Below, in pieces: positions 10,388 through 59,181 of a stretch of 64,000 nt of DNA. How positions within the stretch are numbered: position 1 is the stretch's first letter; every line of letters begins with the position of its first letter. The notes under the pieces are model-generated. The model was not told where the DNA came from and did no database searches. It saw only the letters and a program-made list of their open reading frames with translations. The stretch lies in the IMG/VR virus record IMGVR_UViG_3300045988_154277; one strand, given 5' to 3'. The position numbers were made by a program, and so were the translations under genes. This DNA comes from a virus.

Positions 10388-10448
10388 AGATAGAGTACTC
10401 TGTGTTGATCCGAGATGCTATGTCCATATACAGAAGGAGGACATAAGC

Positions 10449-10867
10449 ATGAGTGCTAAAATCTACACAAATGGAAAGTGGGTTGATCTTTCCCCTGCTA
10501 CGGGGGGGGGGTAATCAGTCTTGGAGACTCCGTGTTTGAAAACCAATTGTCGTCCGAGAATGGTGTTCGATTCGGATCGCAAGCAACAGCTACATCGTTC
10601 GTTCAAATGTCATTCCGTTATGCTGGAAAATCAGATGCAACAGGAACGGGATACATCGCGGTAGGAGAACAAGATCGATCTGTTGATCCTAAAACGTTTA
10701 CACGAAGAGGATATCTGCTTATCCCCTTGACAGATGCTGGATATTACTCTGTATCCTTTGTAGTATCCGAAGGTATGTATCCTGCGTGGAAGTTTGAAGA
10801 AGGTAAGTCGTTTGGAAACATCCTTACATATATGACCACCACACCACTCACGATCGTATCAAACTGA
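10449..10867 (+). pseudogene. poly-G-interrupted (frameshifted or phase-variable) homolog of the small late gene 58975..59181
   Basis: ATG 10449 frame gives MSAKIYTNGKWVDLSPATGGG* ending right after G10 (10502-10511); frame of ORF 10532..10867 is open back through the G tract; +1 G fuses them into ~139 aa resembling MSKAKIYINGAWVDLGG... of 58975. Confidence 0.6.
10502..10511 (+). repeat. G10 homopolymer followed by TAAT, candidate slippage site
   Basis: cGGGGGGGGGGtaat; same context as the G11 tract at 54082..54092. Confidence 0.8.
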
Positions 10868-51457: not shown

Positions 51458-51892
51458 ATGGCTAATTATATCGATATGCAAGTGTTGGCTGATGCCAAGG
51501 TCTCTAAGATCGCACAGCCCACACTGAAACTGAAGAGCACAGGAGTCACGATCCTTCCAGGGATGGACGGTGCAGCTTCTGCTGGTCTTCGGTATCTCAA
51601 TGGATCTTGGGAGTACAACAACGGATCCGCTTGGGTTGCTCTCTCTCCTGAGAACGGAACACTTCCATCTACTCAGGTGATCCAGATCACAGCATCGAAT
51701 CTCGTGAACGGAGTTGCAACGATCCAGCACAACCTGGGTAAGGTTCCGTTCGGGTTGGATGTGTCCGTCACTCCGAAAGCGATCACGTACGTTGACAACA
51801 ACACGATGACGTTGGATTTCAGCGATCAGGCGACTGGGTTCACTGGAGCATCCGTGTGGTTCATCGGTAGTCAACAGAGTATGCTGGTTTAA
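51458..51892 (+). CDS. small protein of the 'ITHNLG...YVD.NT..LDYS...VWF..SKQSML' module family (member 1)
   Basis: 144 aa; C-terminal 75-aa module shared with 51903..52376 and 52366..54099. Confidence 0.6.
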   Translation: MANYIDMQVLADAKVSKIAQPTLKLKSTGVTILPGMDGAASAGLRYLNGSWEYNNGSAWVALSPENGTLPSTQVIQITASNLVNGVATIQHNLGKVPFGLDVSVTPKAITYVDNNTMTLDFSDQATGFTGASVWFIGSQQSMLV

Positions 51893-51902
51893 GGAGGTAC
51901 AC

Positions 51903-52376
51903 ATGAAACAAGTTATCTCTCATAACACCAGAGATCTAACGATCGGTGGTATCATCGATCAGGATCAACTTAAGATCGGTACAACAGGTGGTTCCATCGC
52001 TGGGATCTTTTTCGATACCGGCAAAGAGAACTTCCCTGGGATCCGTTACAACAAAGAGACGTCTCAATGGGAGTCCTCTGTGGACGGTACCACTTGGAAG
52101 ACGTTCGCACAGGAAGGTGCTGTTCCGTATGAAGTGATCAACATTACATCCACGGAATTAACTAGTGGGGTTGCTACGATCACACACAATCTTGGGGTTA
52201 GATACCCCATCGGTCTTGGGTTTACTATAGTTCCAGATGGGATTGAATATGTGGATACCAACACTCTTAAGCTTGATTACAGCAGTCATACTCTCCGCGA
52301 CTTCCATGCCCAAGTGTGGTTTTACAACAGTAAGCAGAGTATGCTTACAGGAGGATCTAGCTCCAATGAAGCCTAA
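51903..52376 (+). CDS. module-family member 2
   Basis: 157 aa; DQDQLKIG and SVDGTTWKTF motifs plus C-terminal module. Confidence 0.6.
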   Translation: MKQVISHNTRDLTIGGIIDQDQLKIGTTGGSIAGIFFDTGKENFPGIRYNKETSQWESSVDGTTWKTFAQEGAVPYEVINITSTELTSGVATITHNLGVRYPIGLGFTIVPDGIEYVDTNTLKLDYSSHTLRDFHAQVWFYNSKQSMLTGGSSSNEA

Positions 52377-54099
52377 TGCAGATATGATAACGAAGGTCTT
52401 GCACAACTTCCGTGTGAACGGTAAGTTCGACCAGGACCAACTGATCATCGGGCGTGGTGTGTATGAACAACTGCAACTGATGATCCAGGAGGGTAGTGAA
52501 GGTGTCGCTACCCTTACATTTGACAATAAGACGTTCTACCGTCGACCGGATCTCGATAAGTATCTGGTGGATGGATGTACGCTCGCGTACGGTGATACAC
52601 TCACTGGTAACCCAACAGCTACACTGTATCGTGGTAGTGAAACCTGGTGTGGTGAGAACTGGTTCGATCCTGAAATGCAGATCGGCAACGACACACCAAC
52701 ATGGGAAGCGACAGGTGGAACCGCTGATAGTCCAGAAGGAACTACTTGGGGTTCCATCTATGACTCTGAAAAGACATTGGTGAGCACATACACCGTTACT
52801 GGAGGAAGTGATCCAATCGGGATTCGGTACACTCCCAGTGTAGCTGGAGAGCGTACGTTCACGATACTCGGGACGACCGATCACCCCGTATTCGATGAGA
52901 CTGTCACACTGTATCCTTACGAGAAACCAGTGAATGATTTTACCAACAGTTGGGTTCTCGCTGAGGAGGATGTGATCTGGATCTCTGATAAATTCACTGA
53001 TCCGGATTTCCCTGGTACCAGATACATCATGTATATTGGAGGCGCCAATGGACCGATGCCGAATCAATGGAGAATCCACACGATCGGTAGTTCGGATGAT
53101 GGAGTTTACGGTGTTGATTGGACTGGTACGAACACTCCTGATTTCCTTGGTGCGCAGGAGAATGTCACCTGGAGCAATGGAGAAGCTTCTGCTTATCCGG
53201 AGACTGTGGATGACTGGTCCACGTCTGGTTATCAGGGTGTTCAGCCAGAATCGTTCAGTATGTCGAACACCGAAGGATCTGATGCTAAACTCGAATACAC
53301 GAACGATGGTACCACTTGGTATCCATTCGGAGGATCTGGTTCTGCAGGGATCACCTATGAGCCGATCGAGTTCACTGGTGATGACCTGCAAGATGATGGT
53401 ACGATCCATATCCAACACGACTTCAACAACAAAAATGTGCTGTGTCTTGGGTGTACCCCACAACCCAAAGAAATCACCTATCTGGACAACAAAATAGTCC
53501 TGGATTACAGTGATCAAAACAGCTCTAATCTTGTTGGTGCTGTTTGGTTCGTAAATAGCAAACAAGAGATGTTGGTAGTTCCTGTAGCACCAGAACCAAG
53601 GAATGTTCCTGAGAATTTGACATCAAACACATCGGATAAGAACTGGTCTATTATGAAGACCTCTGTGAATCCGAGTAATCCGAACGAAGGGCTCGAAAGT
53701 GATGATCCTGAGATGTTCCAGATGTTCGACAATGATGTGTCGACTGGATGTACGTTCTCTGGATCTGCAGGATCTCTCTATCGCTGGAATAGGAGTGACT
53801 TAACTCCTATTAAACCAGAGAAGCTCTATGTCAAACAAGGTGACTTCTTGGATCTTGGTGCTGTTGCGGACGGCATGATGTTGTTCGTTTATGCATCGAA
53901 CACCAAGGTCACTAGCCCGTATGAGACAGGTTCTCTGACTGAGATCGCCAATCACATGGGCGGTGCAGCTGGAACTTACGAGATCGACCTCTCCAGTAAC
54001 AGCCAATCGTTCATCTACTGGTACGTGATGATGGTGAACGCAGAAACCGGAACGATCTACGAGATCGCGGAAGATCCCATCGGGGGGGGGGGTAATTGA
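52366..54099 (+). CDS. module-family member 3 (expanded, receptor-binding-like), ends at the G11 tract
   Basis: ORF track 52237..54099, start at aggaggatctagctccaATG (MKPNADM); contains DQDQLIIG, LEYTNDGTTWYPF and the shared module; terminates ...PIGGGGN* in the G tract. Confidence 0.6.
   Translation: MKPNADMITKVLHNFRVNGKFDQDQLIIGRGVYEQLQLMIQEGSEGVATLTFDNKTFYRRPDLDKYLVDGCTLAYGDTLTGNPTATLYRGSETWCGENWFDPEMQIGNDTPTWEATGGTADSPEGTTWGSIYDSEKTLVSTYTVTGGSDPIGIRYTPSVAGERTFTILGTTDHPVFDETVTLYPYEKPVNDFTNSWVLAEEDVIWISDKFTDPDFPGTRYIMYIGGANGPMPNQWRIHTIGSSDDGVYGVDWTGTNTPDFLGAQENVTWSNGEASAYPETVDDWSTSGYQGVQPESFSMSNTEGSDAKLEYTNDGTTWYPFGGSGSAGITYEPIEFTGDDLQDDGTIHIQHDFNNKNVLCLGCTPQPKEITYLDNKIVLDYSDQNSSNLVGAVWFVNSKQEMLVVPVAPEPRNVPENLTSNTSDKNWSIMKTSVNPSNPNEGLESDDPEMFQMFDNDVSTGCTFSGSAGSLYRWNRSDLTPIKPEKLYVKQGDFLDLGAVADGMMLFVYASNTKVTSPYETGSLTEIANHMGGAAGTYEIDLSSNSQSFIYWYVMMVNAETGTIYEIAEDPIGGGGN
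54082..54092 (+). repeat. G11 homopolymer followed by TAAT at gene end, candidate slippage site
   Basis: cGGGGGGGGGGGtaat; -1 G fuses 52366..54099 to the downstream frame. Confidence 0.8.
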
Positions 54100-54478
54100 C
54101 CCTGAAGAACCACCCGACAACGTCGTTGTAACAAGCCCCATCTACGTCAGTGGTAGTCACCCAACACAAGTGAACTGTGATGGAACGTATGAGACCTACG
54201 ATGGTTCAGCTGCTTCTACAGCAGCTCCCTCCGGTTCAACGACTGTTGCAGTGTACTTCACGATGGGTGGTGGATTCCAAATCACAATAATCCAAAACAA
54301 CACTTCAGGGGAAGTTACATTCTATCTGATGGATGTCAGTTCTCAGATGAATGATGCTGTTGTTTATTTCGTTGGGCATCCTTCTGATACCAGTACGAAC
54401 CATTATGACCCGACGCAAGCTGTCTGGTCACTTGGACAGTATGGTACCGATCCTATCCCAACGATCAGTTTGGAATAA
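54093..54478 (+). CDS. downstream extension frame of 52366..54099 (open back through the G tract; GTG start in ORF track at 54170)
   Basis: Frame open from well upstream through G tract: ...SGGGVIDPEEPPDNVVVTSPIYVSGSHPTQVNCDGTYETYDG...TISLE*. Confidence 0.35.
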
Positions 54479-54841
54479 CCGGTTAAAACCGGATCATTTG
54501 ACGTTGCTGGAGCAGGGACGGCTGGAGTTGATGGTATCTACTACGAGGTACCACATGATCAATATCTGAATTACATCCCGTCATACTTGCCGATCGACGA
54601 AGTATACCGGATCTACACCAACGGGACTTATATGCTCTTGGTGTATGTGTATTCGACCTCTGGTCCGCAGTACAAATTCGGCATATTGAATAACGGTGGA
54701 GATTGGTATATGGAAGAGCTCTACACTAGCAGAAGCTGGTTTACTCATCTGGACGCTGTATCCGTCGTTGGAACATCAACTGTCAATGGTACTGCTCCGG
54801 CACCTACCGTTACTCAGATAAATACAGCATCGGAGGTATGA
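54479..54841 (+). CDS. second extension segment, same frame as 54093..54478, separated only by one TAA (54476-54478)
   Basis: Frame open immediately after the TAA: PVKTGSFDVAGAGTAGVDGIYYEVPHDQ...; ORF track reports it only from a TTG at 54587. Confidence 0.3.
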   Translation, partial: PVKTGSFDVAGAGTAGVDGIYYEVPHDQYLNYIPSYLPIDEVYRIYTNGTYMLLVYVYSTSGPQYKFGILNNGGDWYMEELYTSRSWFTHLDAVSVVGTSTVNGTAPAPTVTQINTASEV

Positions 54842-54967: not shown

Positions 54968-57900
54968 ATGAAAGATCAGGCATCTCTGAATCTTCTGATC
55001 GTGGATACCCCGATCGACGGTAAGGCACTGGAAGGGCATCTCATGCTCCGTGCCACATCGGACGGGTTGAAGCTCTACGACAATACAGGTGTTGAAACAC
55101 CGATCGGTGGAGAAGTGGATGAAACACGACTTCTACCCACTGGAGCGAAAGATGGAGACCTCCTGATAAAGAGCGCGGAGATCGTTGGTAATGATTACAA
55201 CGACGGTCACACTGTGCTTTTTATTCAAGGGAGCGCCTCCAATGCCGCTGCAGCAGATTCCCCGCTTCCGGTTACTTGGAACAACCAACCGGCTGTTCAA
55301 GAAGATAATACTCTGCTTCTCACTGGAAGTACGCAGTTGTCCACAGCCAGTGCTCCCGAAGTCAAACGCGTCTTCGGCGGTGAATTTACCGTGGAAGCTT
55401 ACTTGAAACCGACTCAGTTCAACAACACAAGTCGGCAAGATACCAATTTCTTTTATCTGAATGGTCCGAGTACCTACTACATATATCTCAGCAACTACAA
55501 TAATTCTGGCAATGCGGAGAATGGGAAGTTCGGTCTCTGGGTATATTCTGGTAACCGACAGATCACTCTCAACAACGAGGAGTTCCACCATGTAGCACTC
55601 GATGTGTACATGGAAGGTACGACCAGGAAGTACACGATCTATTACGACGGCGTTGCTGTTCAGACCGATACCTGGTACAATGATGGAGTTGCTGATAGCA
55701 CCAATGCTATCATCCGGTTCTTCTCGAACAGCGATGGCGCGGAGCTGAACAACTGCTACCTGAAATCCATCCGAGTGTCCGATATCGCTCGTTACAAGGG
55801 CAAGTCTTTCACTCCTCCGGCCAATGGTCTTTATCTTCCGGCTCCCGATGGGGAATGGATCACGATCAACCGTTCCAATTTTGTGGAACAGACTGATCAC
55901 AAACTCAACCCGGAACCAACCACTGTTGAAGAGGCCAAGTACGGTTTCTCTCCCGCACTGAAGAAGGATGCCGAAACCAAGACATTCGCTTACGAAATGC
56001 CTTCCAAGGCGAATGATGTTCCGGCGGATTCTACGTTGCAGCTGAACGATTCCGGTACTCCGGTGTTCGTGGAGGCTGAGAAAGTTCTTCTCAGCGATGC
56101 CAAAAGCACCAAACTGAATCAGCTTGACGTGGTCCGTCAGCTTCCGGCAAGTCCGGCAGACAATGTCACTCCTGTTTATAAGAAGCAGGATGTGATCGGA
56201 GCCATGTACAACGACTCTAAAGTCGTCGTACTGCTGCAGGGGTCAAAGGTAAACATCGCCAAGAATGCCGCTTTCCAGTTGACGGGTGGGGATGATGTTA
56301 CCGTTGACAGTGATGGCAATCTTGTCTTCAACCGTGGTAACGGCATTATCGTTCCTGCTGGTAAATTTAACAATGAAGACAATGGTCAGTTTACTGTCGA
56401 CATCATGGTTGCTGTCGACCAGTTGCCATCCGATAGACTTTACGAGTATATTCTCGGTAACGACAACAGTCCTATCTATCCGTTCAACTATCGTGTGTTC
56501 AACGACGGTACAGTGCGGTTCCAGTACCAGAACACGAGTCACTACATCCAGATCGAACAGGGCATCTTTACTCTGTTGAGTTTCGATTACGATGGAACGA
56601 CTCTGCGTTCTTACAAGGATGGAGTTCTGGTTGGTGCACAGGATATGACCTACAGTGCATTCCCGAACGTCATCGGCATCGGCACTGACCAATACTACCA
56701 GCATACTGGATTTGCTGGTCGGATCAAATATATCCGGATGTCAAATATCGCTCGGTACAGAGGTCAAACGTTTACCCCTCCTGGTCTGGCTGGATACGTT
56801 ACTCCGCCGGATGGTGAATGGGTTACCACGCCTGCAATCGGAGACAATCGCCTTCTTCCGAACAATCCGACGAACGGCGATATTCCGGTATATACCAACG
56901 ATTTCGACAGGTCCAACTTCAATACGACGGATACCGTTTGCTTGCTCCAGAACGCAGGCTTGAATCAATTCGAGAACGTTGCCAAAGGAAAGATCGGCGG
57001 AAGTCGGATCAACAACTATGGTGGAAGCGTCACCATCGATGAAAATGGATACTTCGTGTATCCTGGTGGTTCCGGAACCCGGATCGAATTCATCGATTCT
57101 GGATGGAACGCCAGTGGCAATGGAGACTGGACGCTCGATGTTCGCATGATCGCTGAAGCGACCGGCAGTTCGCAGTATTTCCTCGGACCAGCCAACGACG
57201 GAAGCGGTGACCCACAAGCTGTTATCAGAGGTAGCGGAACCACTGGAACGATCCAGCCGTACGAGATCAGCGACATGATTCACGATATTACGTTCGGCGA
57301 AGAGTTCACTTACTCGATGGCATGGGAAGCTGCTACCAAGACTCTGCGTACCTGGAAAGATGGTAAGCAGATGCGGAAGAAGACGTTCACCAGTAACGGA
57401 TATCAGTTCGGCTTCAAGGGAGCCACTGAGTTCTGGCTTGGACGGAATGCAGTCGACCCTGGTCTCAAAGGTAAAGTTAAGTATTGGCGGTTGTCCAACG
57501 CCGCGCTTTACGGTGACAGTGAATTCACCCCTCCAACGGATGTTTATCAGGATGCTCCTGATGGCGCATGGGAACTGGTGAACAAATCCGAAATCGGCGG
57601 AGGAGGAATCTCTGAGATCGCAGTTGGAACAGGTCTGAGTGGGACAGGGATCACTTCCGACCCGCTCAATCTGAATATTGCCAACTACACATCTCAATCA
57701 ACCATCAGTCTTTCTTCAACTGAGGGTAGTGTTAATCTTGCTGGTCACAACTCCGTTAATTTGCAAGAAACATTCGGTAACAAACTGACTTTGGCAGAAC
57801 GAGGGATTGTCATCACCACCGCATCTGGTGCTGATGTGTTGTTGAATGAGCACGCATCAAATTCACCCGGTGGTTTTGTGATCCTTGACAACACTGGAAA

Positions 57901-58507
57901 GCTTCCTGCAGTAGATGGTTCCCAACTGACGAATCTTCCTGCCGGTGCTGTAGATCTCTCTGCTTATACAGGTGGAATCAACTTGAACAGTACGAATGAT
58001 TCCGCTGTTGCGATCAAATTCAACAGTGGCAACCCAACGTACAATGCAGAACTCTCAATGAGTCCTGCTGGAGTTACACTCTCCGGTTATGGAGATGTAT
58101 CACTGGAACACACAGGTGGATCTTATCTAAGACTCACCTCTGGTGAAGCCACGTTATCTTCTAACGCGTCACTTGCATTGAGTGCTGGTTCCAGACTCAC
58201 GATCAGTGCATCGGAAGGCATCTATCTTGGTGCCGCTGGTTTGAACACCGCTGGAGGACTCGTGAAAGTCGGTGATGATGGGAAAATCCCTTCTTCTCTG
58301 TACGATGCTGGAACTGGTGGAGACACTTCTGCTTTGGAGACACGCGTTGCTACACTAGAAACCACAGTGGGTACACTGAATACTACTGTTGATGAGATCC
58401 TTGCTGATTACGGAGAAGGATCTGGTGCTCTGGTTTACCGTGTAGTTGCTTCAGCAACAGAGCCTGTGAACCCGACAGAGGGTATGGTCTGGATCAAGAC
58501 TGATTAA
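54968..58507 (+). CDS. large tail fiber/adhesin-like protein (1179 aa) with three LamG/concanavalin-like repeats
   Basis: Three repeats ending IRVSDIARYKGKSFTPPANGLYLPAPDGEWITI / IRMSNIARYRGQTFTPPGLAGYVTPPDGEWVTT / WRLSNAALYGDSEFTPPTDVYQDAPDGAWELV; C-terminal fiber repeats shared with 49067..51385. Confidence 0.7.
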   Translation: MKDQASLNLLIVDTPIDGKALEGHLMLRATSDGLKLYDNTGVETPIGGEVDETRLLPTGAKDGDLLIKSAEIVGNDYNDGHTVLFIQGSASNAAAADSPLPVTWNNQPAVQEDNTLLLTGSTQLSTASAPEVKRVFGGEFTVEAYLKPTQFNNTSRQDTNFFYLNGPSTYYIYLSNYNNSGNAENGKFGLWVYSGNRQITLNNEEFHHVALDVYMEGTTRKYTIYYDGVAVQTDTWYNDGVADSTNAIIRFFSNSDGAELNNCYLKSIRVSDIARYKGKSFTPPANGLYLPAPDGEWITINRSNFVEQTDHKLNPEPTTVEEAKYGFSPALKKDAETKTFAYEMPSKANDVPADSTLQLNDSGTPVFVEAEKVLLSDAKSTKLNQLDVVRQLPASPADNVTPVYKKQDVIGAMYNDSKVVVLLQGSKVNIAKNAAFQLTGGDDVTVDSDGNLVFNRGNGIIVPAGKFNNEDNGQFTVDIMVAVDQLPSDRLYEYILGNDNSPIYPFNYRVFNDGTVRFQYQNTSHYIQIEQGIFTLLSFDYDGTTLRSYKDGVLVGAQDMTYSAFPNVIGIGTDQYYQHTGFAGRIKYIRMSNIARYRGQTFTPPGLAGYVTPPDGEWVTTPAIGDNRLLPNNPTNGDIPVYTNDFDRSNFNTTDTVCLLQNAGLNQFENVAKGKIGGSRINNYGGSVTIDENGYFVYPGGSGTRIEFIDSGWNASGNGDWTLDVRMIAEATGSSQYFLGPANDGSGDPQAVIRGSGTTGTIQPYEISDMIHDITFGEEFTYSMAWEAATKTLRTWKDGKQMRKKTFTSNGYQFGFKGATEFWLGRNAVDPGLKGKVKYWRLSNAALYGDSEFTPPTDVYQDAPDGAWELVNKSEIGGGGISEIAVGTGLSGTGITSDPLNLNIANYTSQSTISLSSTEGSVNLAGHNSVNLQETFGNKLTLAERGIVITTASGADVLLNEHASNSPGGFVILDNTGKLPAVDGSQLTNLPAGAVDLSAYTGGINLNSTNDSAVAIKFNSGNPTYNAELSMSPAGVTLSGYGDVSLEHTGGSYLRLTSGEATLSSNASLALSAGSRLTISASEGIYLGAAGLNTAGGLVKVGDDGKIPSSLYDAGTGGDTSALETRVATLETTVGTLNTTVDEILADYGEGSGALVYRVVASATEPVNPTEGMVWIKTD

Positions 58508-58603: not shown

Positions 58604-58888
58604 ATGACATTTTATCTCACCATGTACGGTTACAACGACTACAGTGAGATCATGAACCGGTTCTTCGCTACCATTGAATTGCCGAATGGAGAACGTGTCT
58701 ACTCTGAAGAAGGCAACTGGCAACTGGATACAGATTCTGTCTGGGAGAACCTGGATGGATACACCAGCTACAAACTCACGATCCCGTTCCACATGGATGA
58801 GGAAGGTGATATCTCCACTTCGTTCCAGTGGTCCTGGTACATGGTAGGTGCGGCTACTTTCGTGGATCCGTTCCCGACCATCGCGTAA
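58604..58888 (+). CDS. hypothetical small protein
   Basis: 94-aa ORF between two terminators. Confidence 0.45.
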   Translation: MTFYLTMYGYNDYSEIMNRFFATIELPNGERVYSEEGNWQLDTDSVWENLDGYTSYKLTIPFHMDEEGDISTSFQWSWYMVGAATFVDPFPTIA

Positions 58889-58974: not shown

Positions 58975-59181
58975 ATGTCTAAAGCAAAGATCTACATCAA
59001 CGGCGCTTGGGTTGACCTAGGAGGAGCAGATATCCAATTCGCAGTTGCACAATCTGCTGGTAATGAAGCAACCAAACAAGTTGTGGTACGACCAGTTACT
59101 ATTGCTGCCGACGGCACCAGCACCTATAGTGGTGAGGCAAGGACCGTACTATACACATTCGATATCCCAACTGGAGCGTAA
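58975..59181 (+). CDS. small protein (68 aa), intact paralog of the poly-G-interrupted gene at 10449
   Basis: ataaggaggactttATG; MSKAKIYINGAWVDLGG...RTVLYTFDIPTGA. Confidence 0.55.
   Translation: MSKAKIYINGAWVDLGGADIQFAVAQSAGNEATKQVVVRPVTIAADGTSTYSGEARTVLYTFDIPTGA

Follow-up and report, generated by a model that had tools for sequence, protein, structure and literature searches.

The 64,000-nucleotide stretch of viral DNA analyzed here (IMG/VR virus record IMGVR_UViG_3300045988_154277; hereafter, the window) derives from an uncultivated jumbo phage of ~278 kb that is distant kin of the phiKZ-like phages, and it carries a tail-fiber-like gene, gene A (positions 52366..54099, plus strand), that ends in a homopolymer of eleven G residues (54082..54092, plus strand). 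An original prediction, made from the letters of this sequence, had singled out the tract as part of a recoding cassette. The tract does close gene A as described, the end of the gene reading ATC GGG GGG GGG GGT AAT TGA with its stop codon at 54097-54099, and by recount the product, which ends IGGGGN, has 577 amino acids rather than the 578 first given. The start codon at 52366 is backed by homologs, all of which begin MKPNADMITK; from this conserved N-terminus the protein continues through variable inserts and a domain ending VWFVNSKQEML to a domain of ~175 residues that ends YEIAEDPI.

Two further coding segments follow on the same strand. The +1 frame is open from within the G11 run to a TAA codon at 54476-54478, encoding 128 amino acids (VIDPEEPP...TISLE), in keeping with the prediction that loss of one G would append a segment of about this length. 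We refer to this segment as module B (54093..54475); together with the last G of the tract it comprises the VIDPEEPP linker and a domain of ~120 amino acids, it is an open frame, and it has in-frame homologs. Beyond the TAA, the frame stays open for 120 amino acids as far as a TGA at 54839-54841 (module C, 54479..54841), and its earliest start codon is a TTG at 54587. The lone TAA and the TTG start had both been foreseen, the length of the last piece having been put one residue too high, at 121. Joined from the ATG at 52366, A, B and C would form a protein of ~824 amino acids; the figure of ~865 proposed earlier counts from an upstream ATG at 52237.

For the allele type found in the window, the frame logic is simple: G10 places gene A in frame with module B, G9 or G12 gives GGG TAA, and G11 gives GGT AAT TGA, such that module B is translated only with an in-frame tract length. 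We call in-frame alleles ON and the others OFF, gene A being in the OFF phase in the window. A second tract had been reported at 10502 with the same (G)nTAAT context, and a G10 run is indeed present there (10502-10511), followed by TAAT. These two long G runs are not due to chance. The longest other G run in the 64-kb window is 6 and the longest C run no more than 5; matches to G8 number 7 against 0.57 expected, a count reached in 0 of 100 shuffles, and GGGGGGGGGTAAT occurs twice against an expectation of 0.01.

Tract length in related phages

Using the conceptually joined protein as the query, a protein search yielded 32 homolog clusters from ENA, Logan, NCBI and JGI assemblies; cluster look-ups supplied more alleles, and DNA was examined for more than 20 loci. 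All tract lengths reported here are those of consensus assemblies, with identical duplicate contigs counted once. Ten distinct contigs offer a directly measured length at the same codon, and these lengths are G5, G9, G10, G11 and G12. Where the run stands in the context cccatc-Gn-taattgac, it measures G9 (L021 and L022), G10 (L003), G11 (the window and L011) or G12 (L002, a G12 in which the following T is read as G); in the context cctct-Gn-taattgac, it measures G10 (L004/L005 and L015) or G11 (L006/L007/L008 and L013/L014). The C-termini of ~30 distinct proteins imply a range from G8 to G12, including G8 (LGGVID), G9 (LGGGN-stop) and G12 (LGGGGN-stop). In-frame alleles (GGGVIDPEEP...) number about nine and out-of-frame alleles about 20, the latter falling in both wrong frames (GGG-stop and GGGGN-stop), and two in-frame lengths occur, LGGVID and LGGGVID.

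Tract length changes far faster than its flanks, which are 98-100% identical in pairs of alleles that differ by 1-3 G. The G12 contig L002 and the G9 contig L021 are identical at 400 of 400 upstream and 399 of 400 downstream positions; L011 (G11) and L021 (G9) agree at 398/400 and 399/400 (797/800); and L003 (G10, ON) and L022 (G9, OFF) agree at 398/400 and 393/400 (791/800). The long run has persisted in alleles with gene bodies only 80-90% identical to one another and in several domain architectures (P0025, P0051 and P0007); the GGG-VIDPEEP switch is also found behind another upstream domain, ON in P0025 and OFF in P0051.

Uninterrupted fused genes are present in relatives that include L001, P0001, P0003, P0011 and P0043. 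In the IMG/VR relative L001 (a 361-kb contig) and in L020, a single continuous open reading frame (ORF) passes through a run of only G5 (...EDPLGVIDPEEPP..., encoding PLGVID) and into two distal modules without a stop. On this comparison, one continuous gene is the ancestral arrangement, and G5 the oldest-looking allele. IMG/VR holds only this one relative, which is without the long tract, and the leader of the second tract was not found there. The original prediction had treated uninterrupted genes in related phages, taken together with an absence of tract-length heterogeneity, as a sign of error or recent decay; comparison of the related loci bears this out only by half, as uninterrupted genes exist and heterogeneity is abundant.

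As a separate observation, some in-frame alleles of an alternative architecture encode the same linker with an interrupted run, in which G5AG5 reads GEG and G5AG4 reads GGG (L009 4130-4150; L010; L012 7222-7242). These look like stabilized versions of the switch.

The distal modules and the in-frame TAA

Module B of the window is 100% identical to that of L011 and 94-99.7% identical to those of L002, L009, L010, L012 and L003, and it is fused in frame to A in P0003, P0043 and P0053. Module C is likewise 100% identical to its counterpart in L011 and 99.7% identical to those of L009, L010 and L012, where it lies within one ORF. The downstream modules are intact and under selection in OFF alleles, with the exception of the single TAA in the window: 222-249 downstream codons stay open in the OFF alleles L004, L011 and L022, and the ratio of nonsynonymous to synonymous substitution rates (dN/dS) for module B is 0.15-0.33 in every pair, pairs of two OFF alleles included. 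The distal modules are also mosaic. The window and L011 share B and C at 100% identity save for one base, with gene bodies only ~90% identical, and other relatives carry different modules after the same 20-nucleotide linker, which places the run at a module boundary as well. An extension of one module occurs naturally in L013.

The codon that interrupts the window's extension (TAA, 54476..54478, plus strand) stands at the B/C boundary in place of a glutamine codon, CAA, that is found in all five relatives with the junction (L011, L012, L009, L010 and L002). Over the 749 bp of B and C, the sole difference from L011 is a T at 54476 where L011 has C, and P0007 and P0016 read TISLEQPVKTG across the junction. 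The original prediction had invoked stop-codon readthrough at this point. The alignments indicate instead that the TAA is a recent C>T nonsense mutation, or else a variant or error, and not a readthrough signal, because relatives have CAA, TAA is an ordinary terminator (it closes 23 of the window's 44 long ORFs, more than any other stop codon), no tRNA genes were found in the window (which covers 64 kb of ~278 kb), and the small hairpin predicted by RNA folding after the TAA is not significant and has an identical sequence in the CAA relatives. Recoding of TAA to glutamine was considered as well and rejected on the first three of these grounds. Cut off behind the TAA and with no start of its own before the TTG at 54587, module C most likely persists in this genome as a silent remnant.

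Truncations at or near the B-C boundary are seen elsewhere, and they are independent. P0053 (in the cluster of P0006), an in-frame allele, stops just after the boundary (TISLEQPG-stop); L002 (~3650) and L021 end module C early at ...VPHDQ-stop, and their similarity to module C of the window ceases after 86 nucleotides.

The second tract and the fiber gene cluster

The second tract (G10, 10502..10511), which we call locus 1, is again on the plus strand. A 5' part (10449..10514) has a strong Shine-Dalgarno sequence, AAGGAGG, an ATG at 10449 and 21 codons (MSAKIYTNGKWVDLSPATGGG), and it is closed by a TAA right after the tract, an OFF configuration. A 3' part of 118 codons plus stop (10511..10867; VISLGDS...TPLTIVSN) follows, and one additional G in the run at 10502-10511 would join the 21-codon ORF to these 118 codons. 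The run is G10 in the window, G11 in L017 and G9 in L016 and L018. G11 is in frame with the ATG at 10449, and L017 encodes an in-frame protein of 139 amino acids (P0034). With G9, the downstream part is read in continuation of a second, alternative upstream frame, one with GTG and ATG starts (called as P0033 and P0035). Products with different N-termini might even arise from two of the three tract phases, one from the ATG frame at G11 and the other from the GTG/ATG frame at G9. The 100 nucleotides before the tract (window 10400-10501, taking in the Shine-Dalgarno sequence and 53 coding nucleotides) show no substitution in four contigs, the sole change being one base inserted in L017. In L018, the part beyond the tract has only ~65% protein identity despite this invariant upstream stretch. 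The invariance could stem from constraint on two frames at once or from a recombination boundary.

Locus 1 lies between minus-strand genes and outside the fiber cluster, beside a gene for a divergent family-B DNA polymerase encoded by the phage itself. The idea that both tracts reside in tail or adsorption genes does not hold here, as locus 1 adjoins the polymerase gene and has no family match. Its sole tie to the fiber cluster is the N-terminal motif AKIYTNGKWVDL, which recurs at the start of a 68-residue ORF at 58975 (10 of 12 residues). This ORF (58975-59181), which starts MSKAKIYINGAWVDL behind a strong Shine-Dalgarno sequence, is a paralog of the locus-1 N-terminus MSAKIYTNGKWVDL and is located directly upstream of a fiber-like gene of 535 amino acids with a Laminin_G_3 domain. 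Both G(n)TAAT contexts encode Gly(n)-Val-Ile, and there is no similarity past that point. The shared context may go back to common ancestry, to selection for prompt termination in the wrong frames, or to chance, and the three are not separable.

Gene A lies inside a cluster of fiber-like genes that extends from ~46 kb to 63 kb of the window. Matches in this cluster include PHROG tail-fiber and tail-protein families, Laminin_G_3 lectin-like domains and a phage tail repeat. A 1442-residue virion protein of the window is 25-29% identical to proteins of phiKZ-like and related jumbo phages. Identical copies of protein A are present in JGI/IMG and ENA, the largest contig that carries it measuring 278,513 bp. 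Gene A, modules B and C, and the locus-1 protein have no Pfam or PHROG match. The region and the fused protein gave no match among 50,697 phage records (megablast and tblastn), and a PDB sequence search with the family profile and P0016 as queries returned none either. An AlphaFold2 model of the in-frame homolog P0003, computed from a 32-sequence alignment, was poor (mean predicted local distance difference test score, pLDDT, of 49, with values below 50 over the C-terminal domain of A and module B), and a Foldseek search against viral structures found no match at E <= 0.001. GTDB genomes were scanned for relatives that might hint at the host, and none was found. Promoter- and terminator-like sites in the window do not exceed those of shuffled sequence (4 promoter-like against 5.6 expected; 3 terminator-like against 2.2). 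Within B or C, promoter-like sites occur on the opposite strand only, and because of this there is no sign that these modules are transcribed separately.

Several features of the cluster deserve description in their own right. A domain of ~70 residues ending VWF-x-[NG]S-x-Q-x-ML is present three times (51458-51892, 51903-52376 and ~53330-53580), at the C-termini of two small genes just upstream of A and once internal to A. The next fiber-like gene (54968-58507) encodes 1179 amino acids with Laminin_G_3 matches (two matched stretches in Pfam); its counterpart in L001 (10879-11913) has only ~300 amino acids from the common MKDQASLNLLIVD start, and the two have their N- and C-terminal parts in common. 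The comparison shows large module gain or loss within the cluster. Farther along, an ORF of 94 codons (58604-58888) is 94% identical to the final 94 residues of a 700-residue protein that is intact in relatives (L001 13240..15342), and is a gene remnant left by a deletion. Relatives also have a third variable homopolymer, a polyC run (C8, C9, C10 or C12) ~35 nucleotides past the stop of the fiber gene, with a hairpin and then the next fiber-like gene following close behind (L004 8116-8124; L005 3382-3390; L006 8114-8125; L013/L014 8129-8138; L022 1817-1824). The window lacks a counterpart, and L020 reads through the spot without a long C run.

Probable slippage, its alternatives and known switches

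Taken together, we consider it probable that the G runs are hypermutable polyG contingency loci at which slippage of DNA strands adds or removes distal fiber modules. Nascent and template strands would mispair within the run during replication, presumably by the phage's own divergent family-B polymerase, and a G would be gained or lost in the progeny; the resulting change of reading frame would be both heritable and reversible. In gene A, the run would act within a glycine linker (..EDP-I/L-GGG-VIDPEEPP..) that separates the fiber-like body from one or two exchangeable distal modules of ~120 amino acids. In-frame lengths (G10 in the window's allele type) would yield a long fiber bearing the distal modules, and the other two frames, which stop within 0-2 codons, would yield a short fiber ending with the YEIAEDP domain. 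Lengthening by three G residues at a time can do no harm, as each GGG adds one more glycine to the linker, and both LGGVID and LGGGVID occur. A phage population would then hold long- and short-fiber genotypes, presumably as a form of bet-hedging on host receptors. The genome in the window is OFF at both loci, and a switch to G10 would give it an A+B protein of 703 amino acids. The tract, its frame logic, its length polymorphism among near-identical relatives, the ON and OFF alleles and the intact, selected modules are direct observations; we infer the slippage mechanism, reversibility within one lineage, a difference in receptor use between the isoforms, and an effect on adsorption or host range.

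Certain observations weigh against this proposal. The evidence consists of differences between assemblies, not of heterogeneity within one population; some of these assemblies have low coverage (~5-6), and because errors are frequent in long G runs, a number of the lengths may have been miscounted. The ratio of ON to OFF alleles, ~1:2, equals the frame-random expectation, and therefore does not show selection for either state. The fiber or receptor-binding role of gene A is drawn from its position and architecture, because A, B and C have no Pfam, PHROG, PDB or fold match. Finally, the nonsense codon downstream of the tract in the window's own genome fits relaxed selection on its extension.

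A broader form of the slippage proposal, which we put forward as tentative, is that a clade of ~280-kb jumbo phages has evolved a 'phasome' of independent polyG/C switches (in the fiber linker, in the small gene beside the polymerase, and in the intergenic polyC of relatives), with the linker tract doubling as a module recombination boundary. A single element would then serve for fast on/off switching and also for the shuffling of receptor-binding ends as cassettes.

Programmed recoding offers a different account, in which DNA that is out of frame works as it stands and slippage of RNA polymerase, or of tRNA-Gly on GGG codons with the neighboring stop as an aid (GGG UAA; GGU AAU UGA C), delivers a fixed ratio of short to long fibers from one genotype. 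Runs of 9-12 identical bases suffice for transcriptional slippage, and the observed lengths of 9-12 are permissive for it; tRNA-Gly re-pairs perfectly either way on a G run, and both OFF frames have a stop right behind it. That OFF alleles form the majority, yet the modules are under purifying selection, would fit leaky expression too. Programmed sites, however, hold one configuration, whereas the alleles here are commonly in frame and otherwise fall in either of the wrong frames, and the tract-less G5 and interrupted G5AG5 alleles are plainly in frame. Moreover, the two loci of this genome would need opposite shifts (the equivalent of one G fewer at 54082 and one G more at 10502), no stimulatory RNA structure is evident after the tract (54093-54212, z = +1.14), and the window returned 0 matches to Rfam. 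The opposite corrections, the in-frame alleles and the lack of structure after the tract speak in particular against the ribosomal frameshift that had been suggested, and we regard programmed recoding as unlikely. RNA-level or ribosomal slippage may well coexist with DNA slippage as a source of leakiness, and is not needed to account for the data.

Somewhat less likely still is homopolymer miscounting, by which all real genomes would be in frame and the frameshifts would be errors of sequencing or assembly. Long G runs are hard for short-read chemistry and for assemblers, coverage is low in several contigs, and the G12 of L002, with its T read as G, may be an artefact. Out-of-frame alleles nevertheless outnumber in-frame ones by ~2:1 and are spread over five lengths, more than consensus errors about a single true value would produce; separate assemblies or different assemblers agree on a length (L006, L007 and L008; L004 and L005; L013 and L014), and the exact OFF protein of the window is found in two sources. 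Errors cannot account for the run itself, for its growth from G5 or for the reappearance of such a run at a second locus, and nothing else in the window appears frameshifted.

The least probable reading is decay, with the C-terminal extension a pseudogene being lost and the tract a mere mutational weak spot of no adaptive role: the two lesions in one gene of the window (G11 and the TAA), the truncations of other lineages at or near the B-C boundary (SLEQPG-stop in P0053; PHDQ-stop in L002 and L021) and the clear gene remnant in the fiber cluster at 58604..58888 would suit it, but over 222-249 codons the OFF alleles contain no further stop or frameshift apart from the window's TAA, the dN/dS values lie far under 1, diverged gene bodies and several architectures have retained the run and extended it from G5, and synonymous GGN substitutions, of the kind seen in the interrupted alleles, would remove a mere weak spot. 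On this point the original prediction, which had set random decay aside, is upheld: relatives carry a conserved, length-variable switch that spans G8-G12 and visits all three frames.

If confirmed, slippage at these tracts would extend polyG phase variation of host-recognition proteins beyond Campylobacter phages, to a widespread jumbo lineage with its own polymerase, and would do so in a modular form in which distal fiber modules are toggled rather than a gene silenced. It would also have practical consequences. Gene callers split such genes, annotators may label them pseudogenes, and prediction of host range from one consensus genome would err for part of the population. The comparative evidence is exceptionally clear, and the allele series provides ready targets for read-level tests in public metagenomes.

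The closest precedent is that of the Campylobacter Fletchervirus phages, which, in the accounts available through PMC10579305 and PMC10877375, have hypermutable polyG tracts and phase-variable receptor-binding proteins (Sorensen et al., 2021, Cell Rep 35:109214). As far as those accounts go, the two systems share polyG tracts within host-recognition genes (fiber-like by context in the present case) and the presence of several fiber or receptor-binding protein genes side by side. Changes in length are described there as switching expression to give phenotypically mixed phage populations, to which we liken the present case by comparison of assemblies. They differ in that ours is an unrelated ~278-kb jumbo phage lineage known from sequence, and that its second tract lies in a small non-fiber gene beside the DNA polymerase gene. 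The placement differs as well: distal modules would be added or removed here at an inter-domain glycine linker, whereas the whole protein is silenced in Fletchervirus as those accounts portray it. No homology to Campylobacter phage receptor-binding protein genes was detected by megablast or tblastn among the 50,697 phage records.

In T2, T4 and other phages, simple-sequence repeats undergo frequent, reversible slippage frameshifts that have been read as bet-hedging (Gomez, Barrick and Waters, bioRxiv 10.1101/2025.10.21.683753). Those loci are mostly A runs of ~6-9 nucleotides (agt, rIIA), studied by reversion assays and deep sequencing, whereas the runs described here are G9-G12 and the evidence is comparative; megablast and tblastn found no homology to the T2/T4 contingency loci. 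The phase-variable polyG/C genes of Campylobacter, Neisseria and Haemophilus (reviewed in PMC11868660) resemble the present case in their intragenic homopolymers, in ON and OFF alleles among close relatives, in a tract that evolves faster than its flanks, and in targets involved in surface interactions. In contrast to those genes, the replicon here is a virus with its own polymerase, and a modular structural protein would be truncated, whereas an enzyme or adhesin is fully turned off in the bacterial systems.

Other switches of tropism reach a similar outcome by other means. The invertible G segment of Mu and P1 and the diversity-generating retroelement of Bordetella phage BPP-1 (PMC10579305) also produce alternative C-terminal receptor-binding fiber ends within one lineage; the candidate switch described here would do so by a change in homopolymer length, with no invertase, inverted repeats or reverse transcriptase involved. 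Programmed frameshifting (the +1 type of prfB and the -1 type of tail-assembly chaperones) and transcriptional slippage can likewise generate short and C-terminally extended products, and the G11 allele resembles programmed frameshift sites in having a G-rich, Shine-Dalgarno-like stretch beside a UGA C stop. It departs from such sites in that the frame is not conserved, in-frame alleles are common, a stimulatory structure is lacking, and the two loci call for opposite shifts. Against this background, the principle itself has precedent, and the differences lie in the uncultivated jumbo lineage, in a linker placement that would toggle modules, and in the second, non-fiber tract.

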